From a virus (Duplodnaviria > Heunggongvirae > Uroviricota > Caudoviricetes): a stretch of 18,300 nucleotides of DNA. This document shows positions 494-13,934 of this stretch, piece after piece (positions within the stretch are counted from its first letter, which is position 1; each line of letters begins with the position of its first letter). The stretch is from the IMG/VR virus record IMGVR_UViG_2529292920_000008; one strand, written 5' to 3'. The position numbers were made by a program, and so were the translations under genes. Below the pieces are notes generated by a model that saw only the letters and a list, made by a program, of their open reading frames with translations, ran no database searches and was not told the origin of the DNA.

Positions 494-591
494 AGATTCC
501 TCCCGAATAAACTTTGGTGATGCAATCTCGAAGCTCCTCCTGAGACGGTTGCTTCGGCATTGCATCCCACAGCTCATGTGGTTGGGTGATC

Positions 592-638: not shown

Positions 639-659
639 TGCCAGTCTGTTCCGTTTGGC

Positions 660-892: not shown

Positions 893-923
893 GAGGCAAA
901 GAAAACCCGGCGCTGAGGCCGGG
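893..923 (-). terminator. intrinsic terminator on the minus strand, 3' of the DinD-like gene
   Basis: 6-bp GC stem CCCGGC/GCCGGG (906-911 with 918-923), 6-nt loop, followed on the minus strand by UUUUCUUUG. Lies 9 nt past the stop codon at 932-934. Confidence 0.6.
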
Positions 924-931
924 GTATGCAT

Positions 932-1774
932 TTATGGTTTTTTTTGGTCGTGCTTTGCTAGGGCTTTATGAGTTTTCTTAATGCTGCTTCTAACTTTCTG
1001 AATTTTTTCTTGGGAAAGTTTTATGTTTTCAGGGGCTGTTCCAGTGTTAGAAATCATTACATTGCGAACAGATCTCCCTACGGTCTCAGCAGCATTCTCT
1101 AGTTGAGACTGTCCCTTCAGGTTCTGGTTTCTGATTCTTGCTTCTGTCTGTGTAATTCTGAATATATTGGCCGCGAGCTCTTCGCTTCCCATGAAGTCAA
1201 GCATCGTTCCATCTTTTTTAGTTAGGCCTTTTCGAGCTTTCAACTGTGAGAGATTCATATTGTACATCCCACGGTAGCCCGCATTTTGAAATAGACCATA
1301 GTCGACTACTCCGTGTTTATGGGCTACATGACTGAGAGTTTTCTCTCTAGATGTAATCTCGCCACGCAAATAAACTCGATTAACTGCGTCATGGTTATGA
1401 TATGTAGTGTGTATTTCTGCTGCGAGCCCAGCAAAATAAGCTTGTGCATTTGCAACTTTTTGATTGCTGATGTCACCATTCATTACAATCAGATAACAAG
1501 CGAAACGAGTTAATTTAAAGTCATTTTTCGCATTTTCTGAAGGCATCTGGATGAAGTTATCGTATACAGGGATATCGAGGCTCACACATACAGATGTAGC
1601 TTTGTTAATGGCTTTCAATATCTGATCCATGCCATTATATCCAAGCATCATCGCTAAATCAGATGCAAACCAATAGGTAACACCGTTTTCTCTAGCGAAA
1701 TCATCAAATGTTAACTGTGATGTGTCATCGAAAACAGTAATTTGCCTACTCATATCACACCCGAACTTACTCAT
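932..1774 (-). CDS. DinD-like (DNA-damage-inducible protein D family) / Bro-N-like protein; accessory gene in the rexAB slot of the immunity region
   Basis: 280-aa ORF. N-terminal ...VTYWFASDLAMMLGYNG... resembles the Bro-N/KilA-N DNA-binding motif. I recall overall resemblance to DinD-family proteins, but this is memory, not alignment. AT-rich compared with neighbours. Same strand as cI, 80 nt downstream of it, with its own terminator. Confidence 0.6.
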   Translation of the reverse strand: MSKFGCDMSRQITVFDDTSQLTFDDFARENGVTYWFASDLAMMLGYNGMDQILKAINKATSVCVSLDIPVYDNFIQMPSENAKNDFKLTRFACYLIVMNGDISNQKVANAQAYFAGLAAEIHTTYHNHDAVNRVYLRGEITSREKTLSHVAHKHGVVDYGLFQNAGYRGMYNMNLSQLKARKGLTKKDGTMLDFMGSEELAANIFRITQTEARIRNQNLKGQSQLENAAETVGRSVRNVMISNTGTAPENIKLSQEKIQKVRSSIKKTHKALAKHDQKKP

Positions 1775-1854
1775 CGATTTTCCCTTATATTAATATAATG
1801 TGGATAGTTTGTCGCCAACTCGCTAAAGTTATTCATTATGAGGTTTGCCATCCA

Positions 1855-2514
1855 TCACCCAAACGTCTCTTCAGGCCACTGACTAGCGATAACTTTCCCC
1901 ACAACGGAACAACTCTCATTGCATGGGATCATTGGGTATTGTGGATTTAGTGGCTGTAGAAACACCTGACCGCTATCCCTGATCAGTTTCTTGAAGGTAA
2001 ATTCATCACCACCAAGTCTGGCTATGCAGAAATCGCCGGGCTCAACAGCTTGCTCTGGGTCAACCAGAATTAACATCCCGTCAGGAAAACTAGGTTTGGA
2101 ACCTGTTGGGGCGGTCATTGAGTTACCTTCAACCTCAAGCCAGAATGCAGAGTCACTGGCTTTTTTGGTTGTGCTTACCAATCTCTCCGCATCGCCTTTG
2201 GTAAAGGTTCTGAGTTCTGGAGAGAACATCCCAGCCTGAACATGAGAAAAAACAGGGTACTCATATTGTTTTTTAACTGGGGCCGATGAGTATTCGCCAA
2301 CAGGTGAAAATGTCCCGTCGTGGTTGAATGATATGTTATCAATACCAAGGTATTTAAACACCACACCAATATCACTAAGAGATGGATGACGAGATCCGCG
2401 CAACCAGTGTCCAATCCCACCCTGCGTCATACCTAGCTCTTCGGCTAACTTCTCTTGAGTTATGCCGAGCTCTTTCATTCTGGATCTAGCCAGTTCATAC
2501 CATTTCATTTTCAT
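1855..2514 (-). CDS. cI: CI prophage repressor, hybrid: lambda-type C-terminal dimerisation/autocleavage domain with a non-lambda HTH N-terminal domain
   Basis: About 135 C-terminal residues ([26 protein letters not shown]...[12 protein letters not shown]) essentially identical to lambda CI as I recall it. N-terminal [37 protein letters not shown] is an XRE-type HTH unlike lambda. Start taken at ATG 2514 (the ORF-track start at 2676 is an upstream extension); diverges from cro. Confidence 0.9.
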
Positions 2515-2624
2515 GTCCTTATTATTACGCTCTGTATTGCAACCATCCATGCACAATGTGTATTTTTGCTTGCATTCAAAAAGTACATATTGTATTTTTT
2601 CTTCATGGTTACTATGGAGGGCAT
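2515..2624. promoter_or_regulatory. oR/pRM/pR candidate region between divergent cI and cro
   Basis: 110-bp AT-rich spacer between divergent repressor genes. Repeated TGTATT motifs and near-palindrome TACATATTGTA (2583-2593). Possible pR: TTGCAT (2570-2575), 17 bp, TATTTT. Operator boundaries not resolved. Confidence 0.5.
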
Positions 2625-2840
2625 ATGAGCAACCTACGAAAATATCGAGAGTCACTGAATATCTCTCAAACAACACTTGCTAAGGCAGTTGGATGCACAC
2701 AGGGAGCTATCGGACATTGGGAATCTGGTCGTCGCTTCCCAGACCTTAAAACATGCCGTGCTCTTGTTGCGTGTCTAAACAAGTTAGGCGCAAAAGTAAG
2801 TCTTGATGACGTGTTCCCGCCGGAGCACAAAGCCGCTTAA
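2625..2840 (+). CDS. cro: Cro-like repressor (XRE-family HTH)
   Basis: 71 aa from ATG 2625 with GGAGGG Shine-Dalgarno. HTH segment [21 protein letters not shown]. Divergent from cI across the operator region. Confidence 0.8.
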
Positions 2841-2850
2841 TAAGCGGAGC

Positions 2851-2896
2851 CGCTCTTTGTAACAACGGACATTCGTCCTACGTCGCTGAAAAGCGA
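2851..2896 (+). promoter_or_regulatory. nutR candidate: boxA CGCTCTTTGTAACAA, small hairpin, boxB-like hairpin with GAAA loop
   Basis: CGCTCTTT at 2851-2858, hairpin GGAC-ATTC-GTCC at 2867-2878, hairpin TCGCT-GAAA-AGCGA at 2883-2896. Same layout as the nutL candidate. Confidence 0.55.
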
Positions 2897-2981
2897 GCCC
2901 CAAGATATCTGACCAACTAAGGCCATATGCGTTTCCACGCATACCTTTCAACTAACTATTCACTATTGGAAATCTTAAGAA

Positions 2982-3278
2982 ATGGAACAAACAAGTTACA
3001 GCAAACTATCACAGCGTGACGTTGATCGCGCAGAAACAGATTTACTCATCAACCTGTCAACGCTTACCCAGCGTGGTCTGGCAAAGATGATTGGCTGTCA
3101 TGAATCGAAGATAAGCAGAACGGACTGGCGGTTTATTGCTTCGGTCTTGTGTGCTTTCGGAATGGCATCAGACATCAGTCCAATTAGCAGGGCTTTTAAG
3201 TATGCGCTTGATGGAATCACAAAGAAAAAACGCCCGGCGGCAACCGAGCGTTCTGAACAAATCCAGATGGAGTTCTGA
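2982..3278 (+). CDS. cII: CII transcriptional activator (lambda-type C-terminus)
   Basis: 98 aa; C-terminal KKRPAATERSEQIQMEF identical to lambda CII as recalled; N-terminal part diverged. Sits between cro and O. Confidence 0.85.
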   Translation: MEQTSYSKLSQRDVDRAETDLLINLSTLTQRGLAKMIGCHESKISRTDWRFIASVLCAFGMASDISPISRAFKYALDGITKKKRPAATERSEQIQMEF

Positions 3279-3310
3279 GGTCATTACTGGATCTATCAAC
3301 AGGAGTCATT

Positions 3311-4210
3311 ATGACAAATACAGCAAAAATACTCAACTTCGGCAGAGGTAACTTTGCCGGACAGGAGCGTAATGTGGCAGATCTCGATGATGGTTACGCC
3401 AGACTATCAAATATGCTGCTTGAGGCTTATTCAGGCGCAGATCTGACCAAGCGACAGTTTAAAGTGCTGCTTGCCATTCTGCGTAAAACCTATGGGTGGA
3501 ATAAACCAATGGACAGAATCACCGATTCTCAACTTAGCGAGATTACAAAGTTACCCGTCAAACGGTGCAATGAAGCCAAGTTAGAACTCGTCAGAATGAA
3601 TATTATCAAGCAGCAAGGCGGCATGTTTGGACCAAATAAAAACATCTCAGAATGGTGTATCCCTCAAAACGAGGGAAAATCCCCTAAAACGAGGGATAAA
3701 ACATCCCTCAAATTGGGGGATTGCTATCCCTCAAAACAGGGGGACACAAAAGACACTATTACAAAAGAAAAAAGAAAAGATTATTCGTCCGAGAATTCTG
3801 GCGAATCCTCTGACCAGCCAGAAAACGATCTTTCTGTGGTTAAACCGGATGCTGCAATTCAGAGCGGCAGCAAGTGGGGAACAGCAGAAGACCTGACCGC
3901 CGCAGAGTGGATGTTTGACATGGTGAAGACCATCGCGCCATCAGCCAGAAAACCGAATTTTGCTGGGTGGGCTAACGATATCCGCCTGATGCGTGAACGT
4001 GACGGACGTAACCACCGCGATATGTGTGTGCTTTTCCGCTGGGCCTGCCAGGACAACTTCTGGTCCGGTAACGTGCTGAGTCCGGCCAAACTCCGCGACA
4101 AGTGGACCCAGCTCGAAATCAACCGTAACAAGCAACAGGCAGGCGTGACAGCCAGCAAACCAAAACTCGACCTGACAAACACTGACTGGATTTACGGGGT
4201 GGATTTATGA
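3311..4210 (+). CDS. O: replication initiator protein O (lambda type)
   Basis: 299 aa, near-identical over its length to lambda O as recalled (MTNTAKILNFGRGNFAGQERNVADLDDGYARL...). Contains the ori iterons internally. Confidence 0.95.
   Translation: MTNTAKILNFGRGNFAGQERNVADLDDGYARLSNMLLEAYSGADLTKRQFKVLLAILRKTYGWNKPMDRITDSQLSEITKLPVKRCNEAKLELVRMNIIKQQGGMFGPNKNISEWCIPQNEGKSPKTRDKTSLKLGDCYPSKQGDTKDTITKEKRKDYSSENSGESSDQPENDLSVVKPDAAIQSGSKWGTAEDLTAAEWMFDMVKTIAPSARKPNFAGWANDIRLMRERDGRNHRDMCVLFRWACQDNFWSGNVLSPAKLRDKWTQLEINRNKQQAGVTASKPKLDLTNTDWIYGVDL
3655..3790. repeat. ori-lambda-type replication origin: four iterons plus AT-rich tract inside gene O
   Basis: Four ~18-20 bp inverted-repeat iterons (ATCCCTCAAAACGAGGGA, AATCCCCTAAAACGAGGGA, ATCCCTCAAATTGGGGGA, ATCCCTCAAAACAGGGGGA) followed by an A-rich tract ACAAAAGAAAAAAGAAAAGATTATT. 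Confidence 0.85.
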
Positions 4211-4908
4211 AAAACATCGCCGCACAGATGGTTAACTTTGACCGTGAGCAGATGCGTCGGATCGCCAACAACATGCCGGAACAGTACGACGAAAAGCCGC
4301 AGGTACAACAGGTAGCGCAGATCATCAACGGTGTGTTCAGCCAGTTACTGGCAACTTTCCCGGCGAGCCTGGCTAACCGTGACCAGAACGAACTGAACGA
4401 AATCCGCCGCCAGTGGGTTCTGGCTTTCCGGGAAAACGGGATCACCACAATGGAACAGGTTAACGCAGGAATGCGCGTAGCCCGTCGGCAGAATCGACCA
4501 TTTCTGCCATCACCCGGGCAGTTTGTTGCATGGTGCCGGGAAGAAGCATCCGTTATCGCCGGACTGCCAAACGTCAGCGAGCTGGTTGATATGGTTTACG
4601 AGTATTGCCGGAAGCGAGGCCTGTATCCGGATGCGGAGTCTTATCCGTGGAAATCAAACGCGCACTACTGGCTGGTTACCAACCTGTATCAGAACATGCG
4701 GGCCAATGCGCTTACTGATGCGGAATTACGCCGTAAGGCCGCAGATGAGCTTGTCCATATGACTGCGAGAATTAACCGTGGTGAGTCGATCCCTGAACCA
4801 GTAAAACAACTTCCTGTCATGGGCGGTAGACCTCTAAATCGTGCACAGGCTCTGGCGAAGATCGCAGAACTCAAAGCTAAGTTCGGACTGAAAGGAGCAA
4901 GTGTATGA
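4207..4908 (+). CDS. P: replication protein P (DnaB helicase loader, lambda type)
   Basis: 233 aa, near-identical to lambda P as recalled. Overlaps the O stop and the ren start (ATGA overlaps). Confidence 0.95.
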   Translation: MKNIAAQMVNFDREQMRRIANNMPEQYDEKPQVQQVAQIINGVFSQLLATFPASLANRDQNELNEIRRQWVLAFRENGITTMEQVNAGMRVARRQNRPFLPSPGQFVAWCREEASVIAGLPNVSELVDMVYEYCRKRGLYPDAESYPWKSNAHYWLVTNLYQNMRANALTDAELRRKAADELVHMTARINRGESIPEPVKQLPVMGGRPLNRAQALAKIAELKAKFGLKGASV

Positions 4909-5195
4909 CGGGCAAAGAGGCAATTATTCATTACCTGGGGACGCATAATAGCTTCTGTGCGCCGGACGTTGCCGCGCTAACAGGCGCAACAGTAACCAGC
5001 ATAAATCAGGCCGCGGCTAAAATGGCACGGGCAGGTCTTCTGGTTATCGAAGGTAAGGTCTGGCGAACGGTGTATTACCGGTTTGCTACCAAGGAAGAAC
5101 GGGAAGGAAAGATGAGCACGAACCTAATTTTTAAGGAGTGTCGCCAGAGTGCCGCGATGAAACGGGTATTGGCGGTATATGGAGTTAAAAGATGA
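4905..5195 (+). CDS. ren: Ren protein (lambda type)
   Basis: 96 aa, near-identical to lambda Ren as recalled (MTGKEAIIHYLGTHNSFCAPDVAALTG...). Immediately follows P. Confidence 0.9.
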   Translation: MTGKEAIIHYLGTHNSFCAPDVAALTGATVTSINQAAAKMARAGLLVIEGKVWRTVYYRFATKEEREGKMSTNLIFKECRQSAAMKRVLAVYGVKR

Positions 5196-5220
5196 CCATC
5201 TACATCACTGAGCTAATAAC

Positions 5221-5253
5221 AGGCCTGCTGGTAATCGCAGGCCTTTTTATTTG
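5221..5253 (+). terminator. intrinsic terminator (tR2-like) downstream of ren
   Basis: Perfect 8-bp stem AGGCCTGC/GCAGGCCT with 8-nt loop, followed by TTTTTATTTG. Confidence 0.7.
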
Positions 5254-5267
5254 GGGGAGAGTAAATC

Positions 5268-5594
5268 GTGGCTGACTGGCAAATACCAATCATCATTCTT
5301 GCCGGAGCTTCGCTGGTTGCTGGCTTTATCCTGCTGAAGAAGCATAAAGACCGTGATCAAAAAGTCGAAGTTCTCTATGGGTATCCGGCGAACAGCACAA
5401 CATGGCTGACTATTTACCACTACCGAAAATCAGGCCGTTGGGTATTCGAATGGGATGATCTGTTTGCTGAAAAGCGACCAAAGTCATGGGGAGACATCAG
5501 CGAATGCATGATGTTTGAAGAAAGAAAATCCGGCGCAACCCGAGAAGAGTTTAACGAAGCGTGGAGGCGATTAAGTGAGAGGGGGTATCAATGA
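5268..5594 (+). CDS. hypothetical single-pass membrane protein (N-terminal TM helix plus ~85-aa soluble domain)
   Basis: 108-aa ORF from GTG 5268 with GGGGGAGAG Shine-Dalgarno. N-terminal hydrophobic segment IPIIILAGASLVAGFILL followed by a charged KKHKDRDQK stretch. No family recognised. Lies where lambda has the ren-ninB junction. Confidence 0.55.
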   Translation: MADWQIPIIILAGASLVAGFILLKKHKDRDQKVEVLYGYPANSTTWLTIYHYRKSGRWVFEWDDLFAEKRPKSWGDISECMMFEERKSGATREEFNEAWRRLSERGYQ

Positions 5595-5616
5595 GCAGAA
5601 TTAAGTCGAGGTAACA

Positions 5617-6063
5617 ATGAAGCAAATATACATGCTTCGCAACGAAGCAATCAGAAACAACGCCATAGACGCAATACTCTCACTTCCGATCGACGACAAG
5701 TCACCTCACGAAGTCCACATTAAAGAACCCAGGCGGAGCAATCCTCAAAACCGCCTTATGTGGGCGTTATTGCAGGACGTATCACGTCAGGTGCTTTGGC
5801 ATGGAAAGAGACTTGCGCCGGAGGACTGGAAAGATCTGTTCACTGCCCTGTGGCTTAAGACCAAAAAACTGGAGCAACGAAGTGCGCCTGGTATCGACGG
5901 TGGCGTTGTCATGCTTGGCGTGCGTACCAGCAAAATGCGAAAGGCCAGCATGACTGAGCTTATCGAAATCATGTTCTGGTTCGGCTCAGAGCGCAACGTG
6001 CGGTGGAGTGATGACTCCCGGCGAGAGTATGAATGGTCACAACGAAAAGGTAGGGCTGCATGA
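5617..6063 (+). CDS. ninB: NinB-like recombination protein (Orf family)
   Basis: 148 aa with recalled similarity to lambda NinB (NRSxxQNRxxWAxLxDVSRQVxWHG, GxRxSKMR, KWSDD motifs). Confidence 0.8.
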   Translation: MKQIYMLRNEAIRNNAIDAILSLPIDDKSPHEVHIKEPRRSNPQNRLMWALLQDVSRQVLWHGKRLAPEDWKDLFTALWLKTKKLEQRSAPGIDGGVVMLGVRTSKMRKASMTELIEIMFWFGSERNVRWSDDSRREYEWSQRKGRAA

Positions 6064-6587
6064 CTATCAAATCAAATACGCCAGCACACGACAAGGACTG
6101 CTGGCAAACGCCGCTTTGGCTTTTTGATGCACTGGATATTGAGTTTGGATTCTGGCTGGATTCGGCAGCGAGCGACAAAAATGCTCTGTGCGCTCACTGG
6201 CTAACTGAGGCTGACGACGCGCTAAATTCTGAGTGGGTAAGCCACGGTGCAATCTGGAATAACCCACCGTACAGCAATATCAGGCCGTGGGTGGAAAAAG
6301 CCGCTGAGCAGTGTATACAACAACGACAGACGGTAGTGATGCTTGTGCCAGAGGATATGTCAGTCGGATGGTTCAGCAAGGCTCTGGAGAGTGTCGACGA
6401 AGTTCGTATTATCACTGATGGACGGATTAATTTTGTCGAACCATCGACAGGACTGGAGAAGAAGGGAAACAGCAAAGGTTCCATGCTGCTGATTTGGCGA
6501 CCGTTCATCAGTTCTCGACGGATGTTTACTACTGTATCCAAAGCGGCATTGATGGCGATCGGGCAGGGCGTCAGGAGGGCAGCATGA
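6060..6587 (+). CDS. phage DNA N6-adenine methyltransferase (Dam-like, small phage MTase family)
   Basis: 175 aa with DCWQTP...[11 protein letters not shown]...LDSAAS near the N-terminus, catalytic NPPY motif ([10 protein letters not shown]), and [13 protein letters not shown] near the C-terminus. ATGA overlaps with ninB and ninE. Confidence 0.8.
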
Positions 6588-6766
6588 GACGACAGCGACG
6601 AAGTTTCACCGACATCATCTGCGAAAACTGCAAATACCTTCCAACGAAACGCTACAGAAATAAACGCAAGCCAATCCCAAAAGAATCTGACGTAAAAACC
6701 TTCAACTACACGGCTCACCTGTGGGATATCCGGTGGCTAAGACATTGTGCGAGGAAAACAAGGTGA
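6584..6766 (+). CDS. ninE: NinE-like protein
   Basis: 60 aa [60 protein letters not shown], near-identical to lambda NinE as recalled. AGGAGGG Shine-Dalgarno before ATG 6584. Confidence 0.85.
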
Positions 6767-6933
6767 TTGACCAAAATCGAAGTTACGAACAAGAAAGCGT
6801 CGAGCGAGCTTTAACGTGCGCTAACTGCGGTCAGAAGCTGCATGTGCTGGAAGTTCACGTGTGTGAGCACTGTTGCGCAGAACTTATGAGCGATCCGAAT
6901 AGCTCAATGTACGAGGAAGAAGACGATGAATGA
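6763..6933 (+). CDS. ninF: NinF-like protein (Cys-rich)
   Basis: [56 protein letters not shown], near-identical to lambda NinF as recalled. Start assigned to GTG 6763 overlapping the ninE stop; start uncertain. Confidence 0.7.
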
Positions 6934-7648
6934 GTTAATAAATGGCAATGCCATAAAAATGACAAGCATTGAAATCGCTGAGTTGGTTGGTAAGCGTCAT
7001 GACAATGTGAAACGTACCATCGAAACGCTGGCTAAAAATGGTGTTATCCGGCTTCCTCAAATTGAGGATTGTGGAAGAATCAATGGGTTAGGCTTAAATC
7101 AAAGTTTTTGTGTGTATGTATTCGAAGGCGAACAAGGAAAGCGAGACAGTATTGTCGTTGTAGCCCAGTTGTCGCCGGAATTCACGGCTCGCCTTGTTGA
7201 CCGTTGGCGAGAGCTTGAAGAAGCTGCGGTTAATATCCCAAAAACGCTACCAGAAGCGTTGCGCCTTGCTGCTGACCTTGCTGAGCAGAAAATGCAACTG
7301 GAAAACCAGCTAGCAATTGCCGCACCTAAAGTTGAGTTTGCCGATCGCGTTGGCGAGGCCAGCGGAATTTTGATTGGAAACTTTGCAAAGGTTGTTGGAA
7401 TTGGTCCAAACAAACTGTTTGCGTGGATGCGCGATCACAAAATCCTTATTGCTTCAGGTTCCCGGCGCAATGTGCCAATGCAGGAATATATGGATCGCGG
7501 CTATTTCACAGTGAAAGAAACAGCGGTCAACACAAATCACGGAATACAGATATCGTTCACCACAAAAATCACCGGGTGTGGTCAACAGTGGCTGACCAGA
7601 AAGCTGCTCGATAACGGAATGCTGAAAGTAACAGGGGAGGCTGCTTAA
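6926..7648 (+). CDS. phage antirepressor-type protein (Rha-like N-terminal region plus AntB/KilAC-like C-terminal domain)
   Basis: 240 aa. N-terminal MTSIEIAELVGKRHDNVKRTIETL resembles the Rha regulatory motif; C-terminal half resembles Ant-type antirepressor C-domains. Family assignment from memory. Confidence 0.7.
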   Translation: MNELINGNAIKMTSIEIAELVGKRHDNVKRTIETLAKNGVIRLPQIEDCGRINGLGLNQSFCVYVFEGEQGKRDSIVVVAQLSPEFTARLVDRWRELEEAAVNIPKTLPEALRLAADLAEQKMQLENQLAIAAPKVEFADRVGEASGILIGNFAKVVGIGPNKLFAWMRDHKILIASGSRRNVPMQEYMDRGYFTVKETAVNTNHGIQISFTTKITGCGQQWLTRKLLDNGMLKVTGEAA

Positions 7649-7938
7649 TGGCTAACCTACGCAAAGAAGCTCGCGGCAGAGAATGCCAGGTACGTATTTA
7701 CGGCGTATGCAATGGCAACCCTGAAACTACAGTTCTGGCACATTACCGGATGGCTGGAATTTGCGGAACGGGAATGAAGCCTGACGACCTGATCGGCGCA
7801 TGGGCTTGTAGCGCGTGTCACGATGAAATCGACCGACGCACCCATAACCTCGACAACAAAGACGCCAGACTTTACCACCTCGAAGGCGTGATCAGGACGC
7901 AGGCGATACTGCTGAAGGAGGGGAAGATTAAGCCATGA
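7648..7938 (+). CDS. YbcO-like protein (DUF1364, Cys/His-rich putative nuclease of the nin region)
   Basis: 96 aa with ARGRECQVRIYGVCNGNPETTVLAHYR and WACSACHDEIDRRTH motifs, matching recalled DLP12 YbcO. Immediately precedes rusA, as in DLP12. Confidence 0.75.
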   Translation: MANLRKEARGRECQVRIYGVCNGNPETTVLAHYRMAGICGTGMKPDDLIGAWACSACHDEIDRRTHNLDNKDARLYHLEGVIRTQAILLKEGKIKP

Positions 7939-8297
7939 ACGAATATCAGTTTGTGCTTCCATACCCGCCGTCGGTGAATACCTACTGGCGAAGACGGGGA
8001 GGCCAATACTACATCAGCGATAAAGGCCAGAAATACCGAAAAGACGTTCAGCAAATCATTCGCCAACTCAAGTTAGACATTTTCACCAAATCACGACTCC
8101 GTATCAAAGTCATCGCAGACGTTCCAGACTCCCGCCGCCGCGACCTCGACAACATCCTGAAAGGTTTACTCGACTCCCTTATCCACGCCGGATTTGCGGA
8201 AGACGACGAGCAATTCGATGACATTCGCGTAATTCGTGGTGTGAAAGTACCAGGCGGAAGGCTTGGAATAAAAATCACCGAACTGGAGAACACATGA
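7935..8297 (+). CDS. rusA: RusA-family Holliday junction resolvase
   Basis: 120 aa with LPYPPSVNTYW, RRRDLDN and GGRLGIKITE motifs typical of RusA. ATGA overlap with the YbcO-like gene. Confidence 0.9.
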   Translation: MNEYQFVLPYPPSVNTYWRRRGGQYYISDKGQKYRKDVQQIIRQLKLDIFTKSRLRIKVIADVPDSRRRDLDNILKGLLDSLIHAGFAEDDEQFDDIRVIRGVKVPGGRLGIKITELENT

Positions 8298-8428
8298 ACA
8301 AAGCATTCGAACGATATATGCGCCAGCGTTATGGCAATCGCTACGATCTTACCCGCGATGCTTACGGCTTCTACTGTCGTGAGGTTGTGAAACGAATGTT
8401 TGAAGTGTGGTGTCATTGCAAAGGATAG
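8294..8428 (+). CDS. small hypothetical protein (44 aa), translationally coupled to rusA, in the position of DLP12 ylcG
   Basis: ATG 8294 overlaps the rusA stop (ATGA). Product MNKAFERYMRQRYGNRYDLTRDAYGFYCREVVKRMFEVWCHCKG; stop TAG at 8426-8428. Below the ORF-track length cutoff. Confidence 0.45.
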   Translation: MNKAFERYMRQRYGNRYDLTRDAYGFYCREVVKRMFEVWCHCKG

Positions 8429-8439
8429 AGGGGAAGACG

Positions 8440-9063
8440 ATGAGACTCGAAAGCGTAGCTAAATTTCATTCGCCAAAAAGCCCGATGATGAGCGACTCAC
8501 CACGGGCCACGGCTTCTGACTCTCTTTCCGGTACTGATGTGATGGCTGCTATGGGGATGGCGCAATCACAAGCCGGATTCGGAATGGCTGCATTCTGCGG
8601 TAAGCACGAACTCAGCCAGAACGACAAACAAAAGGCTATCAACTATCTGATGCAATTTGCACACAAGGTATCGGGGAAATACCGTGGCGTGGCAAAGCTT
8701 GAAGGAAATACTAAGGCAAAGGTACTGCAAGTGCTCGCAACATTCGCTTATGCGGATTATTGCCGTAGTGCCGCGACGCCGGGCGCAAGATGCAGAGATT
8801 GCCACGGTACAGGCCGTGCGGTTGATATAGCCAAAACAGAGCAGTGGGGGATAGTTGCTGAGAAAGAGTGCGGAAGATGTAAAGGCGTCGGTTATTCAAG
8901 AATGCCAGCAAGCGCCGCATATCGCGCTGTGACGATGCTAATCCCAAACCTTACCCAACCCACCTGGTCACGCACTGTTAAGCCGCTGTATGACGCTCTG
9001 GTTGTGCAATGCCACAAGGAAGAGTCAATCGCAGACAACATTTTGAATGCGATCACACGTTAG
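8440..9063 (+). CDS. Q: late gene antiterminator Q (lambda type)
   Basis: 207 aa from MRLESVAKFHSPKSPMMSDSPRATASD..., near-identical to lambda Q as recalled. The ORF-track start at 8407 is an upstream extension. Confidence 0.95.
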   Translation: MRLESVAKFHSPKSPMMSDSPRATASDSLSGTDVMAAMGMAQSQAGFGMAAFCGKHELSQNDKQKAINYLMQFAHKVSGKYRGVAKLEGNTKAKVLQVLATFAYADYCRSAATPGARCRDCHGTGRAVDIAKTEQWGIVAEKECGRCKGVGYSRMPASAAYRAVTMLIPNLTQPTWSRTVKPLYDALVVQCHKEESIADNILNAITR

Positions 9064-9099
9064 CGCCATGATTGCCACGGATGGCAACATATTAACGGC

Positions 9100-9160
9100 A
9101 TAATATTGACTTTTTGAATAACTTTGGGGAAACTTGACACCAATAATGGGCGTTTTTTAC
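9100..9160 (+). promoter_or_regulatory. late promoter PR' with qut-like region (lambda-like)
   Basis: ATTGACTTTTTGAATAACTTTGGGGAAACTTGACACCAATAATGGGCG closely parallels the lambda PR'/qut sequence as recalled. -35 TTGACT at 9107-9112, 17-bp spacer, -10-like GAAACT. Confidence 0.5.
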
Positions 9161-9300
9161 ATGTCATTGATGAGTCTCAATAACCTGCCGCCGAGTAGTT
9201 TTTATGCTCTGAATTGTATTTGTGTAGTAAACATGCTGACTGCAATGTAATAGAGTTTTTTTAGCCTGTAACCTCTTGACGGCATTGAATTGCTTTTGTT

Positions 9301-10059
9301 ATGAGTTGTAAGCCAATGTTATCATCTTGTATTGGGGTGGTTATGAAGGATGGTGCACTGCTCAGGAGTTCTTCACTTTTTATTGCCTACATGGGATGCC
9401 TTGGATGGGGGAGTGCTTATTTCTATGGATGGGGTACTTCTTTTTACTACGGCTTCCCATGGTGGATTGTAGGTGCAGGTGTTGATGATGTTGCCAGAAG
9501 TTTATTTTTTGCAGTTATCGTCATTGCTATATTTCTTATCGGTTGGGGTATTGGTGTTGTATTCTTTTTCGCAGTGAAAAGAAAACATTCTATGCAAGAG
9601 CTAAATGTATTTCGCCTTTATTTTGCTGTGGAATTATTGTTTGTGCCGGCAATTATTGAGTTTTCTATATTGAGACAGAAGATTCAGGTACCTCTTTTGC
9701 TACTGTCAGCAGCGATTGCGCTGGCGGTTACAATTTCGATAAGATCTTATGGGCGATTTTTATCGGTATCATGCTTCTATGATAAGCCATTTATAAAAAA
9801 ACATTTTTTTGAGATTGTGATGATTGCTTTTGTGGCATATTTTGGGCTTTTTTCATTTCTGACAGGATATTACAAACCACAGTTTAAGAAAGAATATGAA
9901 ATGATTAATTATAATGATGGTTGGTATTATGTTCTTGCTCGTTATGATAATTGTCTGGTTTTGTCTACTTCTTTCAATGCAGGTAGTAAAAGGTTTGTCA
10001 TTTATCAATCAGCACAAGATAAGAATCTTCAGGTTGATATTGTAAGGACCAGAATTTAA
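9301..10059 (+). CDS. hypothetical multi-pass inner-membrane protein; moron between PR' and the lysis cassette
   Basis: 252-aa ORF (alternative start ATG 9343 behind GGGGTGG) with about 5 hydrophobic helices (e.g. LFFAVIVIAIFLIGWGIGVVFFFAV) and a ~50-aa hydrophilic C-terminal tail. AT-rich relative to flanking genes. No family recognised. Confidence 0.6.
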   Translation: MSCKPMLSSCIGVVMKDGALLRSSSLFIAYMGCLGWGSAYFYGWGTSFYYGFPWWIVGAGVDDVARSLFFAVIVIAIFLIGWGIGVVFFFAVKRKHSMQELNVFRLYFAVELLFVPAIIEFSILRQKIQVPLLLLSAAIALAVTISIRSYGRFLSVSCFYDKPFIKKHFFEIVMIAFVAYFGLFSFLTGYYKPQFKKEYEMINYNDGWYYVLARYDNCLVLSTSFNAGSKRFVIYQSAQDKNLQVDIVRTRI

Positions 10060-10489
10060 TTGGCTGCATAAATAATATTTTAAGTTGCAAGTTGGCTATT
10101 CGTAGGAATAGAACCTTAGGCATGCTGAATGCGTTTTCTGAACATTGTTTTATAAACTGTGTCTGCTTGCTGTTGTGATCCTGCTTTTAGTGATGGTGAT
10201 GATGGATTTCACCAGCAGGATAATGTTGGTACTGACTGATGGCGCTCTGGTCTGCGGCATTGTGGTATTGCTGTGGCCGATGATGAAAGAACAGAATGAA
10301 TAATCCTTGACTTTTTTGTTTACTGTTTATTAAAAAATCAACCGCATGGTGAATCCTCCTTGGAGGGGCTAAATGATCGAGTTTTAAGGGCACGTAGCGA
10401 GTTCTGTTTGATCATTGCAGAACTTAGCGGGAGGCGCCATGCGTACATCACTAATGTTATTTCCTTCTATCATTTTCCTTGTGAGTTCT

Positions 10490-10516
10490 GGCTGCGCATG
10501 GCGCGGCCTTTTTTTT
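10490..10516 (+). terminator. intrinsic terminator, plus strand (tR'-like candidate)
   Basis: 8-bp stem GGCTGCGC/GCGCGGCC (one G-U pair), 3-nt loop, followed by eight T residues. Confidence 0.6.
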
Positions 10517-10692
10517 ATGACCTGCCACTGGCAGATGGTCATCCTGTGATTTGATTCCGGTTCCGGCTTTTTAACTCTGTTCCTGTACACGGGAGAAATT
10601 CTATGTCGATTAATCGTTATGATATTGGTTACAAGAAGTACCACGTATTGTGTTGAGATAGAAAGCATGGTGCCAGAGGTAAATGCAGCAGC

Positions 10693-10745
10693 ATAATAAA
10701 AAAGAGCCAGCGCAGAAGAGAACGGGTAAAAGAGTCTGCGCTGGC
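10693..10745 (-). terminator. intrinsic terminator, minus strand
   Basis: Perfect 11-bp inverted repeat GCCAGCGCAGA / TCTGCGCTGGC (10706-10716 with 10735-10745), 18-nt loop, followed on the minus strand by CUCUUUUUUAUUAU. Confidence 0.45.
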
Positions 10746-10861
10746 GTGGGGATATTCCCCGTGGAGAAATGATATGTAACACACATCGGGAACCTTTCTA
10801 TATAAACATTATCATTATTGTCAATCATAACAGTCAGGTATTATGACGTTTATGCATCAGG

Positions 10862-10893
10862 GCCATCAGGAATTAACTGGTGGCTTTTTATTG
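10862..10893 (+). terminator. intrinsic terminator, plus strand, just upstream of the holin gene
   Basis: 8-bp stem GCCATCAG/CTGGTGGC (one G-U pair), 7-nt loop, then TTTTTATTG. Confidence 0.5.
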
Positions 10894-10924
10894 TTGTCAG
10901 CTTCCGGATAACGGGAGACGGAGT

Positions 10925-11140
10925 ATGTATCAGATGGAAAAAATCACAACAGGTGTGTCATACACCACGTCAGCGGTGGGGACGGGATACTGGTTACTGC
11001 AGCTGCTGGACAAAGTCTCTCCGTCCCAGTGGGTGGCAATAGGTGTGCTGGGAAGTCTGCTGTTTGGCCTGCTGACGTATCTGACAAATCTTTATTTCAA
11101 GATTAAAGAAGATAAGCGTAAGGCTGCGAGAGGTGAATAA
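10925..11140 (+). CDS. class II holin / pinholin (phage 21 S-like) with dual-start motif
   Basis: 71 aa [71 protein letters not shown]: two TM segments, Met1/Met4 dual start, charged C-terminus; resembles S21 as recalled. GGGAGACGGAG Shine-Dalgarno. Confidence 0.85.
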
Positions 11141-11637
11141 TGTCGCCGTCATTACGCAAGGCTGTTGCAGCTGCTATTGGTGGTGGGGCTGTTGCCATAG
11201 CGTCTGTGCTCATCACTGGTCCAGGTGGTAACGATGGTCTGGAAGGTGTCAGCTACATACCATACAAAGATATCGTTGGCGTATGGACTGTATGTCACGG
11301 ACACACCGGAAAAGACATCATGCCCGGTAAAACGTATACCGAAGCAGAATGCAAAGCCCTCCTGAATAAAGACCTTGCCACGGTCGCCAGACAAATTAAC
11401 CCGTACATCAACGTCGATATACCGGAAACAACGCGCGGCGCTCTTTACTCGTTCGTTTACAACGTGGGCGCTGGCAATTTCAGAACATCGACGCTTCTTC
11501 GCAAAATAAACCAGGGTGATATCAAAGGCGCATGTGACCAGCTACGTCGCTGGACATACGCTGGCGGTAAGCAATGGAAAGGGCTGATGACCCGTCGTGA
11601 TATTGAGCGTGAAGTCTGTTTGTGGGGGCAGCAATGA
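11140..11637 (+). CDS. SAR endolysin (lysozyme with N-terminal signal-anchor-release domain, R21-like)
   Basis: 165 aa with a Gly/Ala-rich weakly hydrophobic N-terminus ([20 protein letters not shown]) followed by a lysozyme-like domain. Directly follows the pinholin, a known functional pairing. Confidence 0.85.
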
Positions 11638-12101
11638 GCAGGGTAACCGCGATTATCTCCGCTCTGGTTATTTGCATCATCCTCTGCCTGTCATGGGCTG
11701 TTAATCATTACCGTGATAACGCCATCGCCTACAAAGAGCAGCGTGATAAAAAAGTCAGTGAGCTGAAGCAGGCGACCGCCACCATTACTGACATGCAGCA
11801 ACGCCAGCGTGCTGCTGATGTACTCGATGCTAAATACACGAAGGAGTTAGCCAATGCGAAAGCTGAAAATGATGCTCTTCGGCGTAAGCTTGATAATGGT
11901 GGTCGGGTGCTCGTCAAAGGAAAATGCCCTGTGCCAGCCTCAGCCAAAACCTCCAGCTCCTCCGGCATGGGCAATGATGCCACCGTCGAACTCTCTTCAG
12001 TTGCTGGACGAAACGTTCTCGGTATCCGGGACGGAATTATCCGTGACCAAACAGCACTGAGAACGCTTCAGGAGTACATCAGGACGCAATGCCTGAAATA
12101 A
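11634..12101 (+). CDS. Rz: Rz i-spanin (N-terminus lambda-like, C-terminal half diverged)
   Basis: [31 protein letters not shown]... matches lambda Rz over roughly the first 100 residues as recalled; the C-terminus differs. ATGA overlap with the endolysin stop. Confidence 0.9.
11854..12060 (+). CDS. Rz1: Rz1 o-spanin lipoprotein, embedded in the +1 frame of Rz
   Basis: [21 protein letters not shown]...: signal peptide with lipobox-like VVGC and a proline-rich mature region ([12 protein letters not shown]). Embedded arrangement typical of Rz/Rz1. Confidence 0.8.
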
Positions 12102-12133
12102 TTTTTTTGCAAATCACAAAGTCAATTTAATGA

Positions 12134-12156
12134 GCCTCGCGATGCGGGGCTTTTTT
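12134..12156 (+). terminator. intrinsic terminator after the lysis cassette
   Basis: 7-bp stem GCCTCGC/GCGGGGC (one G-U pair), 3-nt loop, followed by TTTTTT. Confidence 0.6.
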
Positions 12157-12299
12157 ATGTCCGCAGTAAACGCGCATCTCACGCGCATATTAACGAGAGC
12201 CTTTCAGTAAGCGAGCCTGAGAAATGCCGTTATAGGTGGCGACCTCTCTCGGGCGGCTTTTCTGTGAGACAGGCTCACTTTCTAAAAGGTAAAGACGCT

Positions 12300-12824
12300 A
12301 TGAATAATCATTCAGTTATTCCAGCCTTCGACTTCCGAGAAATGGTGCAAGCCAAAAACGGAGAGGTCGTTACCACATCCAGAAAAATTGCCAAGTACTT
12401 CGGCAAGCGACACGGTGATGTTCTCAGGAAAATCGAGCAGGTTAAGGCTGATTGCTCGCGTGAGTTTAGCCAACGCAATTTTGCGTCGGCTGATTATATC
12501 GATGAGCAGGGCAAGGTTCGCCCGATGTACAGCCTGACGAAAGATGGCTGGATCATGGTTGTGATGGGGTTCACCGGGAAAGCTGCTGCGGCAATCAAGG
12601 AGAGCTATATCGCAGCATTCAACTGGATGGCAGAGCAACTGAGCCGCCGCATGGCAATTGGCGAAGAAATGCAGCACCGCTACGCCATCAAAGAAACACG
12701 CTCAAAGCTGAAAGGTACGATCGGCAGTCGGTTAATGAACGAACGGAAGAAAGAGAAGCGTGTCCTGGCTGTCGAGCATGAATACATTTTGCAGGTGACA
12801 CAGCCTGAACTGCTGATTAATTGA
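12300..12824 (+). CDS. Rha-family phage regulatory protein
   Basis: N-terminal VVTTSRKIAKYFGKRHGDVLRKIEQV matches the Rha N-terminal motif. Start taken at ATG 12300 (the ORF track gives GTG 12264). Sits between the lysis cassette and cos. Confidence 0.7.
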   Translation: MNNHSVIPAFDFREMVQAKNGEVVTTSRKIAKYFGKRHGDVLRKIEQVKADCSREFSQRNFASADYIDEQGKVRPMYSLTKDGWIMVVMGFTGKAAAAIKESYIAAFNWMAEQLSRRMAIGEEMQHRYAIKETRSKLKGTIGSRLMNERKKEKRVLAVEHEYILQVTQPELLIN

Positions 12825-13220
12825 AGATGTCATTACAAAGCCTATCTACGGGTGGGCTTGATAATGGCTTATACCCTGCACGGGATAACTTAACTGATAT
12901 CCCTTTTAACGGATAAAGGTATTCAAGCCTGACACATCATGCGCTGTATCGTCGCCGTATTCCCGCATTAACCATGATCGTAGCCCGACGGGGAATTCCT
13001 TCTGCGTGAGTGTGCGGGAATAATCAAAAACGATGCACACCGGGTTTTTACCGCGTTTATGATTCGTGGGTTTGTCCCTCATGCTCGCCAGTCCTGTGCG
13101 GGGGTGGAAGAAACAGGACGCTCACACAGATTCTTGTAGGTACGATGCTATTCCTTTCTGGATTATCCCGATGCCATTCATGCAGGGCGCTGTATCAGAC
13201 GTTCGTCATGGCTGTCAGGC

Positions 13221-13270
13221 TGACGGGTCCTCCTGGTGGGGTGGCCTGCCACGGGGCGGGAGCGTCGCGG
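13221..13270. other. cos site candidate (cosQ/cosN region), lambda-like
   Basis: TGACGGGTCCTCCTGGTGGGGTGGCCTGCCACGGGGCGGGAGCGTCGCGG aligns with the lambda right-end/left-end junction as recalled (ACGGGTCCT ... ACGGGGCGG ... CGCGG). Lies ~175 bp upstream of the small terminase gene, as in lambda. Confidence 0.55.
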
Positions 13271-13439
13271 AAAAAGGCTAGTTTTTGAAATTTCATTCGT
13301 CATCACCACTGCTGTAATTGATTGATATTGCAGTAGTTTTATTTTTGCGGTGTCGATTTTGATTGTTTTTTGTTCATCACTAACACCGTTTGCCTAAAGT
13401 TGTTCGCAAGATGCATGTTTAAAACATTCTGGAGCGGGT

Positions 13440-13934
13440 ATGGATCGAGAGTTAAAAAATCTGACGCTGAATATCAGTCAACTGGCGGCACTGTCAGGTG
13501 TACATCGCCAGACTGCTGCGGCAAGGCTGCAAAATCTACCCGTTGCAGGGGGGCATGAAAGCAACCTCAAGCTTTATCGGGTGGTTGATATTGTGTCGGC
13601 ATTTCTGGCATTGCCACCGCCGGTTGCAGAAGGCGAAATGGACGCGCATGAGCGCAAAGCCTGGTATCAGTCTGAACGTGAGCGTCTTAAGTTCGAACAG
13701 GAAACGGCACAACTCATTCCGGCCAGTGATGTCAGACGGGAGTTTGCCATCTGGGCAAAAGCGGTCGTGCAGGTGCTGGAGACATTACCGGATATTCTGG
13801 AACGTGACTGCGGTCTGCAGCCTGCCGCTGTGAGCCGTGTTCAGTCCATTATTGATGATCTGCGCGATCAGATAGCCCTGCGGGTGACTGAAGCAGGTGC
13901 GGATGATGAGGAGGAATTACAGCAGGAGGAGTAA
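13440..13934 (+). CDS. terminase small subunit (Nu1-like)
   Basis: 164 aa with an N-terminal HTH-like LNISQLAALSGVHRQTAAARLQ and an acidic C-terminus. Immediately precedes and overlaps the large terminase start. Confidence 0.8.
   Translation: MDRELKNLTLNISQLAALSGVHRQTAAARLQNLPVAGGHESNLKLYRVVDIVSAFLALPPPVAEGEMDAHERKAWYQSERERLKFEQETAQLIPASDVRREFAIWAKAVVQVLETLPDILERDCGLQPAAVSRVQSIIDDLRDQIALRVTEAGADDEEELQQEE

Follow-up and report, generated by a model that had tools for sequence, protein, structure and literature searches.

roi and rha orthologues of a lambdoid prophage and a candidate regulatory RNA leader upstream of rha

The ant gene of phage P1 belongs to the immI operon, where the c4 antisense RNA regulates it. 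Roi of phage HK022 reportedly binds DNA within its own gene, beside an IHF site. The protein is annotated as a 'DNA binding protein', and the title of the paper on roi, together with GenBank notes, connects the gene with an IHF-linked growth phenotype (Clerget & Boccard 1996, PMID 8763934). According to a GenBank note and paper titles (PMID 7768817), Rha of phage phi80 inhibits phage growth/DNA synthesis in IHF-deficient hosts. For AriS of Listeria phage phi10403S, inhibition of the host SOS response has been assigned to the KilAC domain and action on phage genes to the N-terminal one (Azulay et al. 2022, PMC9043618). An 89-nt small non-coding RNA, P22F, was seen in P22 infection and reported as a sequenced species (PMC13397905). 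Of the conserved regulators in lambdoid phages, Roi and Rha are still some of the least understood.

The window, an 18,300-nt stretch of viral DNA, is a lambdoid prophage 99.7% identical to a prophage of EPEC E2348/69, which carries several lambdoid elements and has five matching places per genome. Two genes of the window had been predicted to encode antirepressors: a 240-aa protein of the nin region, with a Rha-like N-terminus and a KilAC-like C-terminus, and a Rha-family protein encoded between the lysis genes and cos. Domain annotation supported the assignments above the cutoffs, Rha and KilAC for the first protein and Rha for the second. The map positions were also borne out, as the first gene lies in the nin region and the second follows Rz and precedes the terminase genes, with cos itself placed by inference. 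Sequence and synteny are decisive for the identity of both genes, which is therefore firm: on these grounds the two ORFs are orthologous to roi of the HK022/HK97 type and to rha of the phi80 type, respectively. Both were already known. They are ordinary copies of long-named lambdoid-phage genes that are common in E. coli. Coordinates of all features are collected in Table 1.

Table 1. Features of the roi and rha loci and of related elements in the window
Feature	Position	Strand	Remarks
BRO-N protein, 280 aa	932..1774	-	Takes the rexAB place downstream of cI; with roi and rha, a third gene of this broad class
roi orthologue, 240 aa, ATG start	6926..7648	+	Rha-type N-terminus, helical linker, KilAC/ANT C-terminus; RefSeq WP_001003979.1
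Roi Rha-type domain, aa 12-99	6959..7222	+	Pfam PF09669, 33.5 bits, barely over the cutoff of 29.9
roi allelic (mosaic) patch, aa 22-63	6989..7114	+	In the part of the Rha domain presumed to hold the recognition helix and wing
IHF core within roi, perfect consensus AATCAATGGGTTA	7078..7090	+	1-mismatch copy at 7097-7109
Roi KilAC/ANT domain, aa 126-228	7301..7609	+	Pfam PF03374, 111.1 bits, cutoff 25.3
Intrinsic terminator after Rz, GAGCCTCGCGATGCGGGGCTT plus T-run	12132..12158	+	Strong at 12132-12152; precedes the rha leader
Structured 5' leader of rha, about 110 nt	12193..12302	+	Long hairpin P1-P4 plus long-range helix P0
rha orthologue, 174 aa	12300..12824	+	Alternative GTG start at 12264 (longer form); RefSeq WP_001059339.1
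rha allelic patch, about aa 17-70	12350..12510	+	Two alleles
Inferred cos region	13248..13327	.	cos placed at about 13248-13268

The two genes do not always occur together. Of 51 viral contigs with rha, only 8 have roi as well, and phage 2B8 carries rha but no roi. Both genes are among the five regulators listed for phage Gally. The original prediction described them as two paralogous regulators, which overstates their relationship, since no similarity between Roi and Rha was detectable by BLASTP (best E 0.59). 'Paralogous' is too strong, the only link being that both belong, distantly, to one Pfam domain family. We consider it probable that roi and rha serve lambdoid phages as accessory regulators, assort independently of each other and act by the Roi and Rha mechanisms proposed below. 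The BRO-N protein, the third member of the class, scored 33.6 bits against Pfam Bro-N and is named 'BRO family protein' in RefSeq. Over its full length it also matched the PADLOC candidate defence family PDC-S13 (287.7 bits).

Roi of the window is identical to HK022 Roi at 212/241 residues (88% aa identity, full length, E 3e-157), and the gene shares 92-96% nucleotide identity with roi of HK75, HK140, HK620, HK022 and HK97. It is flanked by ninF (ending at 6933) on one side and by ybcO/DUF1364 (starting at 7648), then rusA and Q, on the other. Within this nin operon its start and stop codons overlap the neighboring genes, ninF by ATGAATGA and ybcO by TAATG. The protein matched PHROG 63, 'anti-repressor Ant', with 321 bits. 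Its N-terminus scored 17.3 bits against TIGR02681, under the cutoff of 45.95. An AF2 model built on an alignment of 31 close homologues had a mean pLDDT of 37.7 and was unusable.

Variation in roi is concentrated in one patch. The window and HK022 genes are >97% identical outside gene nucleotides 63-190 and strongly diverged within them. Two alleles of aa 48-63 were found among 71 IMG/VR copies, and the patch has at least six alleles among 30 database proteins, in which aa 132-240 are nearly invariant. Codon 218 (7577-7579) encodes cysteine in the window and in 6/71 IMG/VR copies, and the residue is arginine in 30/30 aligned homologues.

The perfect IHF core WATCAANNNNTTR at 7078-7090 recurs, as a sequence match, at the equivalent gene position in HK022 and in two other alleles. 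It is kept in three diverged alleles, that is in 70/71 copies plus HK022. Because the core overlaps conserved I-N-x-L-G codons, selection on the protein, and not on the DNA, may account for its being kept. Upstream of rha no perfect IHF core was found. A site with one mismatch near rha (12306-12318) was rejected because such sites are no more frequent than chance predicts (15 found, 19.3 expected).

Rha of the window consists of a Rha domain (aa 25-111) followed by a long C-terminal helical hairpin, and the KilAC domain is absent. The domain scored 99.1 bits against Phage_pRha (PF09669, cutoff 29.9) and 113.8 bits against TIGR02681 (cutoff 45.95), confirming that this is a Rha-family gene. The protein is 73% identical to phi80 Rha, and the gene is 99% identical in nucleotide sequence to that of phage 2B8. 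An AF2 model (pLDDT 82) has a beta-beta-alpha-alpha-alpha-beta-beta-alpha domain plus helices at 94-141 and 146-167. Its best PDB neighbors are PadR-type winged-helix regulators, with weak scores. A PDB sequence search returned nothing for Roi or Rha. Like roi, rha has an allelic patch: the window, 2B8 and HK639 carry one allele and phi80, Omnitron, Chronis and ENT1 the other, whereas the leader and the C-terminal third of the gene are near-identical in all of these phages.

rha follows Rz (ending at 12101) and is followed by a DUF1441 small-terminase gene (starting at 13440). The terminator after Rz is annotated in phi80, HK639, HK106 and epsilon34 and is conserved across genera. In Providencia the cassette is located between tail genes. 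The placement of cos follows a related phage record that terminates at the equivalent of window position 13248. A perfect IHF core lies at 13315-13327 on the minus strand, in the inferred cos region, and the lambda cosN 12-mer was absent from this region within 3 mismatches. Judged by eye, the region resembles the flank of lambda cosN.

From its place in the operon, Roi would be made only within the PR delayed-early (nin) transcript, after induction or infection. If it behaves like its orthologue it would bind phage DNA, with one target next to the IHF site of the roi gene itself, and would modulate lytic development in an IHF-dependent manner. Roi appears to join a variable winged-helix domain of the Rha type, whose recognition part comes in several alleles, to a near-invariant KilAC domain that probably acts on a conserved host component. 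Variable patches in the Rha domains versus an invariant KilAC suggest phage-specific DNA targets together with a shared host target.

A more specific role for Roi can be drawn from AriS. Roi could be a dual regulator of the same kind, with a KilAC domain that, after induction of the phage, damps the host SOS response, probably via RecA, and an allele-specific Rha domain that tunes phage genes, so that induction of co-resident SOS-dependent prophages is aligned or limited. The AriS study explicitly counts pRha-KilAC proteins as AriS-like, and in the three proteins that it tested the SOS-inhibiting activity was located in KilAC (PMC9043618). The constancy of KilAC beside a variable N-terminal patch is in keeping with this, and CI of the prophage is a LexA-like S24 peptidase and therefore RecA-dependent. 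However, the evidence comes from Listeria only, and the likeness is one of domain architecture. The published Roi phenotype concerns IHF rather than SOS, and AriS under native expression gave no measurable SOS inhibition (PMC9043618). We regard an AriS-like Roi as possible and hold it only tentatively.

It is improbable that Roi, Rha or both are true antirepressors that bind a CI-type repressor of their own or of a co-resident lambdoid prophage, disable it and thereby trigger or spread induction. The idea has a source in nomenclature: P1 Ant1 and KilA gave the KilAC/ANT domain its name, and PHROG and NCBI label the family 'anti-repressor'. An effect in trans on heteroimmune prophages is also logically possible, roi being expressed from PR after induction, and E2348/69 carries several lambdoid elements. 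However, what the Ant domains of P1 do exactly is described as unclear, and the KilAC domain of AriS lowers rather than raises induction (PMC9043618). The phenotypes reported for the Roi and Rha orthologue groups are IHF-linked growth inhibition and DNA binding, and repressor binding is not among them. P22-Ant domains are absent, and Rha lacks KilAC altogether.

Expression signals also argue against antirepressors, a functional class with P22 Ant, P1 Ant, 186 Tum and Gifsy GfoA as members and marked by independent control through a LexA box, a promoter of their own or an immI-type circuit. Neither roi nor rha showed such control. The original prediction had proposed a search for promoters and repressor-binding sites upstream of each gene. 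Promoter-like sites were as frequent as chance predicts (12 found, 11.3 expected), and no sigma-70 promoter on the plus strand before roi or rha stood out from chance. The LexA box had no exact match, and matches with one mismatch were insignificant. An Rfam search found no c4, sar or IsrK-type RNA. An antirepressor function for Roi or Rha was shown neither here nor in the accessible literature. Thus the domains and the map positions of the predicted antirepressors stand, while the function assigned to them goes back solely to inherited database names.

The region between the terminator and rha encodes a structured leader. Its basal helix P1 pairs CCUUUCAG (12200-12207) with CUAAAAGG (12282-12289) and covers the SD AAAGG (12285-12289). 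The long-range helix P0 pairs CGAGAG (12194-12199) with CUCUCG (12246-12251), and the apical hairpin has a conserved GGCG loop. Structure is supported by folding, both by MFE and by z-score, and 17/18 diverse leaders gave like MFE folds independently. A covariance model of the leader, R1, matched 47 loci. In the model-fitted alignment, from which all pair counts are taken, 96% of cells are paired and 32/33 pairs have compensatory changes among 44 distinct sequences, with double changes in all 6 pairs of P1. Double-change cells numbered 300, versus 82 in shuffles, and the covariation score was 0.61 versus 0.06-0.08 when partners were slid. P0 covaries in 44/44 distinct sequences and exists in 16 or more covarying forms. 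G-U pairs occur often and in a strand-specific way. Across >30 genera the sequence diverges and the pairing is retained. The leader has the SD-containing helix with compensatory changes that is expected of an SD-sequestering cis-regulatory leader.

The covariance-model alignment was used in place of a plain MAFFT alignment. RNAalifold on the latter gave a partly different and weaker structure, which was set aside because the MAFFT alignment is not structure-aware. A search of the whole window against Rfam 15 gave no match at the gathering score, and matches in 12050-12400 were only at chance level (E 0.046 or worse) and scored far under the gathering thresholds. Two other readings of the leader were rejected. 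The frame of a coding upstream peptide is open in the window, but single-nucleotide indels compensate in helices and not in codons. AGGTGGCGACCT at 12234-12245, with 2 mismatches to lambda cosN, is the apical hairpin with its GGCG loop and not a cos remnant.

The leader is not confined to rha. It is also fused to KilA-N and T5orf172/GIY-YIG-type genes, and it is 100% identical between phages with unrelated downstream genes, the junction falling exactly at the ATG. On balance we lean towards the leader being an uncharacterised family of cis-acting RNA, pseudoknotted or switchable, that occludes the RBS and gates translation of interchangeable genes (Rha, KilA-N, T5orf172/GIY-YIG and others). 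Together with the terminator it would move as one unit in the late operons of temperate phages from Enterobacterales and other groups, and P22F would be its stable remnant. rha fills a variable slot after the lysis genes that would be reached only by Q-antiterminated late transcription through the strong terminator, and its translation is probably restrained by the pairing of the basal helix with the SD. P0 may open or lock the structure. The covarying P0 helix suggests a two-state switch, for which IHF-dependent physiology, the encoded protein, temperature and an sRNA are candidate triggers. Such tight control would fit a product whose mis-expression harms phage growth, as the Rha phenotype in IHF-deficient hosts implies. 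Rha itself would act through its single Rha domain, with the helical hairpin probably serving oligomerisation.

Rha and the alternative genes of the slot might instead form an exclusion or abortive-infection module against other phages. The slot does behave like a moron site, the Providencia cassette lies between tail genes, and the attachment of the same leader to KilA-N and T5orf172/GIY-YIG-type genes could be read in the same way. PADLOC, however, had no defence-family match for Rha or Roi, inhibition was observed only in IHF-deficient hosts, and a terminator followed by an SD-occluding leader speaks against the lysogenic expression that a defence gene would need. Such a module is doubtful. 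It is very unlikely that the leader is conserved only as a DNA-level recombination linker between exchangeable modules, with no function as RNA, because, although complete identity upstream of unrelated genes with a junction at the ATG is typical of lambdoid mosaic boundaries, the pairing is kept across >30 genera of diverged sequence with the excess of double changes and the covariation score given above, the G-U pairs are strand-specific, P0 has its many covarying variants, and a discrete form of the RNA builds up during P22 infection (PMC13397905).

New here are the allelic patches, the roi IHF core kept in three alleles and the folded rha leader covering the SD. The 'antirepressor' label should not be read as function, and automated names such as 'anti-repressor Ant' hide the IHF-linked phenotypes, which are all that experiments have so far taught about these genes. 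The rha leader offers a concrete, testable handle on how harmful genes of this class are kept in check.

Several known systems resemble this locus in part. Roi shares the KilAC family (Pfam PF03374) with P1 Ant1/Ant2 and KilA; unlike P1 ant, it lies in a window without c4 or any other Rfam family. Like AriS (Azulay et al. 2022, PMC9043618), it has two domains with KilAC at the C-terminus, but AriS has an AntA/AntB N-terminus, a Gram-positive host and a different genomic position. HK022 Roi, along with Roi of HK97, HK620 and Stx phages, matches in length (240/241 aa), in position between ninF and ybcO/rusA, in the Rha plus KilAC architecture and in the place of the IHF core. The window differs from HK022 in its allele of the aa 22-63 patch and in cysteine at residue 218, a near-invariant arginine.

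The rha locus resembles that of phi80, with the same order of Rz, terminator, leader and rha and about 150 practically identical nucleotides upstream. The Rha system also includes ORF201/rha of P22 (Mozola & Friedman 1985; Henthorn & Friedman 1995). Unlike phi80, the window carries the other allele of the aa 17-70 patch. Only about 0.4 kb separates its rha from the inferred cos; in phi80 four further ORFs intervene. P22F ends 6 nt before the rha start, and its sequence lies inside a match to the leader model (46.7 bits, E 1.7e-11) at a P22-type locus. The report on P22F (PMC13397905) is without the conserved fold, SD occlusion, P0, the multi-genus spread and the non-Rha fusions. For P22F, the rha leader supplies a conserved fold together with its genomic context and a candidate role.

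Two Rha-family genes had been proposed in the window as paralogous antirepressor-type regulators. The open reading frames are present and were correctly mapped in the original prediction. The 240-aa protein does combine a Rha-like N-terminus with an Ant/KilAC C-terminus, as revealed by Pfam matches to Phage_pRha (residues 12–99, 33.5 bits; cutoff 29.9) and ANT/KilAC (residues 126–228, 111 bits), and the 174-aa protein belongs to the Rha family (Phage_pRha, 99 bits; TIGR02681, 114 bits). The proposed paralogy of the pair is not supported: BLASTP between them finds nothing (best E 0.59) and they have only a distant domain family in common. The 240-aa gene and its flanks share 92–96% DNA identity with the roi region of HK75, HK140, HK633, HK620, HK022, HK97 and mEpX1. 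HK022 Roi is 88% identical in amino acid sequence over its full length and has the same neighbours. The 174-aa gene is 99% identical to the rha copy of phage 2B8 and ~82% identical in DNA to phi80 rha (73% amino acid identity between the proteins). Matches to roi occur in 971/5426 complete E. coli genomes and matches to rha with its leader in 331/5426, where a DNA match had to span 80% or more of the query, and Roi is matched by over 7000 database proteins. roi and rha assort independently of each other. In phage 2B8, rha occurs with a nin region of NinG/NinI type and no roi, and among 51 viral contigs that have rha and 6 kb or more of sequence upstream of it only 8 carry roi. Their co-occurrence is on record for phage Gally of E. 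coli LF82, which has both among its five transcriptional regulators. The earlier observation is thus correct and the biology ordinary: both genes are already known, and so are their locations.

A lambdoid prophage of enteropathogenic E. coli O127:H6 E2348/69 is 99.7% identical to nearly the whole window, and more than 80% of the window is present in 4 genomes of the collection searched. Gene order was read from the RefSeq annotation of the E2348/69 region and from our domain scans of the window. N is followed by a BRO-family gene and a LexA-like cI, both on the minus strand; then come cro, cII, O, P and ren; ninB, dam, ninE, ninF, roi, ybcO (DUF1364), rusA and Q; two genes of no assigned function, holin, lysozyme and Rz; and rha, the small and large terminase and portal. 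The E2348/69 match leaves out the final ~376 bases, within a prohead protease/capsid gene, so the window either comes from a related, non-identical prophage or spans a mosaic boundary. Three genes between Q and holin occupy the slot of toxin genes in Stx phages. One product, of 247 aa, belongs to PHROG 1521 (unknown function) and to no Pfam family; the others are a DUF3927 peptide and a 132-aa product with no family match. The BRO-N protein (280 aa) is encoded directly downstream of cI, the position of rexAB in lambda, and its whole length aligns with PDC-S13, a candidate defence family of PADLOC (287.7 bits). Probably expressed in the lysogen, its gene adds a third Bro/KilA/Rha-class member to the window, absent from the original prediction.

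Coordinates of features in the window and of leader module copies in compared viral sequences
Feature	Position	Strand	Remark
E2348/69 prophage match	1–17924
BRO-N gene	932–1774	minus
roi	6926–7648	plus	240 aa
roi allelic patch	6989–7114		presumed recognition helix and wing
IHF core in roi	7078–7090		WATCAANNNNTTR, perfect sequence match
Roi codon 218	7577–7579
Q–holin interval	9301–10782
DUF3927 peptide	10145–10303
132-aa ORF	10384–10782	minus
Terminator and leader, folded together	12125–12320
Intrinsic terminator hairpin	12132–12152	plus	to 12158 with T-run
Leader	12193–12302	plus	folding and covariance
P0, 5' strand	12194–12199		CGAGAG
Basal helix, 5' strand	12200–12207		CCUUUCAG
Segment resembling lambda cohesive end	12234–12245		AGGTGGCGACCT
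P0, 3' strand	12246–12251		CUCUCG
Alternative upstream rha start	12264
Basal helix, 3' strand	12282–12289		CUAAAAGG
rha	12300–12824	plus	174 aa; conserved ATG
rha allelic patch	12350–12510		presumed recognition helix and wing
Window end beyond E2348/69 match	17925–18300
Module at unrelated gene, L249	1242–1353
Module at unrelated gene, L250	1242–1353
Module at unrelated gene, L251	1242–1351
Module at unrelated gene, L252	1241–1350
Module at unrelated gene, L002	4188–4280
Module at unrelated gene, L097	7400–7505

For specialists the main value lies in the rha leader and in the allele structure of both Rha domains. The non-coding stretch between Rz and rha, in the PR' operon, is more conserved than the rha gene itself. 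It contains a strong intrinsic terminator followed by a ~110-nt leader with a long hairpin; the two together (196 nt) have a fold energy of −62.8 kcal/mol (z −2.46). Because of the position of the 3' strand of the basal helix, the Shine-Dalgarno sequence, 11 nt before the ATG, is paired in the predicted fold. When leaders from different genera were folded singly, 17/18 gave the same architecture. With a covariance model based on 10 sequences plus the structure predicted for the window, the element was found to end at the start codon of Rha-family genes at 47 loci. These leaders occur in more than 30 genera, including Escherichia, Citrobacter, Klebsiella, Enterobacter, Pantoea, Yersinia, Providencia, Xenorhabdus, Morganella, Erwinia, Mixta, Rosenbergiella, Gilliamella and Halomonas, and the element is present even where the downstream Rha has diverged to ~40% protein identity. 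Run over 1.18 Mb of flanking phage sequence, the model found rha leaders and one other site only.

Covariation was measured on 44 distinct leader sequences. The alignment is model-fitted, which inflates pairing, and 96% of cells were paired compared with 41–46% with slid partners. Compensatory double changes occur in 32/33 pairs (21.6 ± 1.8 in shuffles) and in 300 cells (82 ± 9 in shuffles), with a covariation score of 0.61 against 0.06–0.08 with slid partners. Model fitting is insufficient to explain so large a gap, and folding leaders individually gave a concordant picture. A long-range helix, P0, pairs a segment just 5' of the hairpin with the 3' part of the apical loop. A P0-type helix of 5–8 bp is present in 44/44 distinct sequences, in at least 16 covarying versions. 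P0 and the main hairpin are topologically a pseudoknot; given the length of the hairpin, P0 may instead represent a second state, formed in competition with the basal helices. No Rfam 15 family matches the leader, and phage records leave it without annotation, the terminator being the most that is annotated. One segment differs from the lambda cohesive-end sequence GGGCGGCGACCT at 2 positions; it forms the leader's apical hairpin, which has a conserved GGCG loop, and the likeness is most likely coincidence. Annotated rha starts vary between records, As3 (L254, 926–1531) and phi80 starting upstream, inside the structured leader. The true start is likely the conserved ATG.

The same terminator-leader pair (116–125 bits) also precedes unrelated genes placed, like rha, after the lysis genes, and stops precisely at their start codons. 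KilA-N proteins follow it in HK620 (hkbK) and SPN3UB, and T5orf172/MUG113 (GIY-YIG-type) proteins in epsilon34 (gp68) and HK106 (HK106_064). A second, diverged copy lies upstream of PHI80_66 in phi80 and a further copy upstream of an HNH-like ORF on one viral contig. The genes behind this shared control module are therefore interchangeable, and rha is one of several. In a Providencia sequence (L172, 1392–2031) the whole leader and rha cassette lies between tail genes V (major tail) and G (assembly chaperone), typical moron behaviour within a late operon. The leader RNA exists as a stable species, since the P22 small RNA P22F falls within the leader-model match on a P22-type locus (46.7 bits, E 1.7e-11). 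P22F is an 89-nt RNA on the same strand as rha, validated by RT-PCR, with its 3' end 6 nt from the rha start codon, and is listed with 'no known function' (PMC13397905, 2026). Its fold, spread and likely role are absent from that paper.

An AlphaFold model of Rha (47 homologues) is confident (mean pLDDT 82) and has a beta-beta-alpha-alpha-alpha-beta-beta-alpha domain at residues ~17–88 followed by two long helices (94–141 and 146–167). Fold searches with this model gave no significant match; PadR-type winged-helix regulators were recurring weak neighbours. The rha gene is a mosaic. Residues ~17–70 occur as two alleles, one in the window, 2B8 and HK639 and the other in phi80, Omnitron, Chronis and ENT1; both groups are near-identical in codons 1–16, in the C-terminal third and upstream of the gene. 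Likewise, roi of the window and HK022 is more than 97% identical outside nt 63–190 and strongly diverged inside. Two alleles differing at residues 48–63 were found among 71 viral-contig copies, and 30 database homologues have at least six alleles of residues 22–63 and two of the linker (residues 99–131), with residues 132–240 almost invariant. From the Pfam register and the Rha model, residues 22–63 would span helices two and three plus the wing of a winged-helix domain, the part expected to contact DNA. In both Rha domains the patches are sharp-edged. The sequence around them, with the KilAC domain in its entirety and the rha leader, hardly differs between phages, a pattern that points to possible exchange of binding specificity through the patches.

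The window has four perfect IHF cores compared with 0.92 expected, and at least four occurred in only 2/200 shuffles. The core inside roi keeps its gene position in all three alleles compared at the DNA level, HK022 included, but it overlaps the residues I-N-x-L-G, whose own conservation makes the argument less strong. A 1996 study reportedly found that Roi binds within its own gene, near an IHF site, and that single substitutions in roi restored growth on IHF-deficient hosts. Residue 218 is cysteine in the window, arginine in 30/30 aligned homologues and cysteine in 6/71 viral-contig copies. Since single substitutions in HK022 roi are said to alter phenotype, Cys218 could be a functional variant.

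The KilAC domain invites comparison with AriS of Listeria phage phi10403S (Azulay et al. 2022, PMC9043618). There the KilAC domain on its own is enough to inhibit the bacterial SOS response, probably via RecA, and the N-terminal domain targets the phage's own genes; AriS-like proteins have AntA/B, Bro-N or pRha N-termini. The same authors regard the exact domain functions of P1 Ant as still unclear. By analogy Roi might act on the SOS response as AriS does, though we consider this rather unlikely.

That either Roi or Rha is a true antirepressor is very improbable. In classical cases, control of the antirepressor gene is separate from that of the repressor it targets. In the window, the start of roi falls within the ninF stop region (ATGAATGA) and its stop codon shares bases with the start of ybcO (TAATG), so it can be transcribed only as part of the nin operon from PR. 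A scan of 5200–13500 gave 12 promoter-like sites with 11.3 expected, which is chance level, and none just upstream of roi or rha on the plus strand. The search found no exact LexA box and no enrichment of near-matches, the Rfam scan of the window detected no c4, sar or IsrK-type RNA, and PADLOC has no family for either protein. Unlike classical antirepressor genes, then, roi and rha are without separate control, and the antirepressor label should not be read as a functional assignment. A product expressed from PR is unable to trigger induction of the prophage that encodes it and could reach other prophages only after that induction. Such an effect of Roi is possible but unsupported.

We instead picture Roi as a delayed-early DNA-binding regulator whose variable domain would recognise phage-specific DNA jointly with IHF and whose constant KilAC domain would engage a conserved partner, probably of the host. 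GenBank labels its orthologues 'DNA binding protein' and 'DNA-binding protein Roi'. Rha would be a late, tightly restrained DNA-binding protein, the terminator restricting transcription to Q-modified polymerase and the leader restricting translation, and it may harm phage development when control is lost, as in IHF-deficient hosts. In phi80, Rz, terminator and rha have the same order as in the window. The GenBank note on phi80 rha reads 'DNA synthesis inhibition in IHF- hosts', and titles from the Friedman laboratory name a phi80 function inhibitory for lambdoid phage growth in him mutants.
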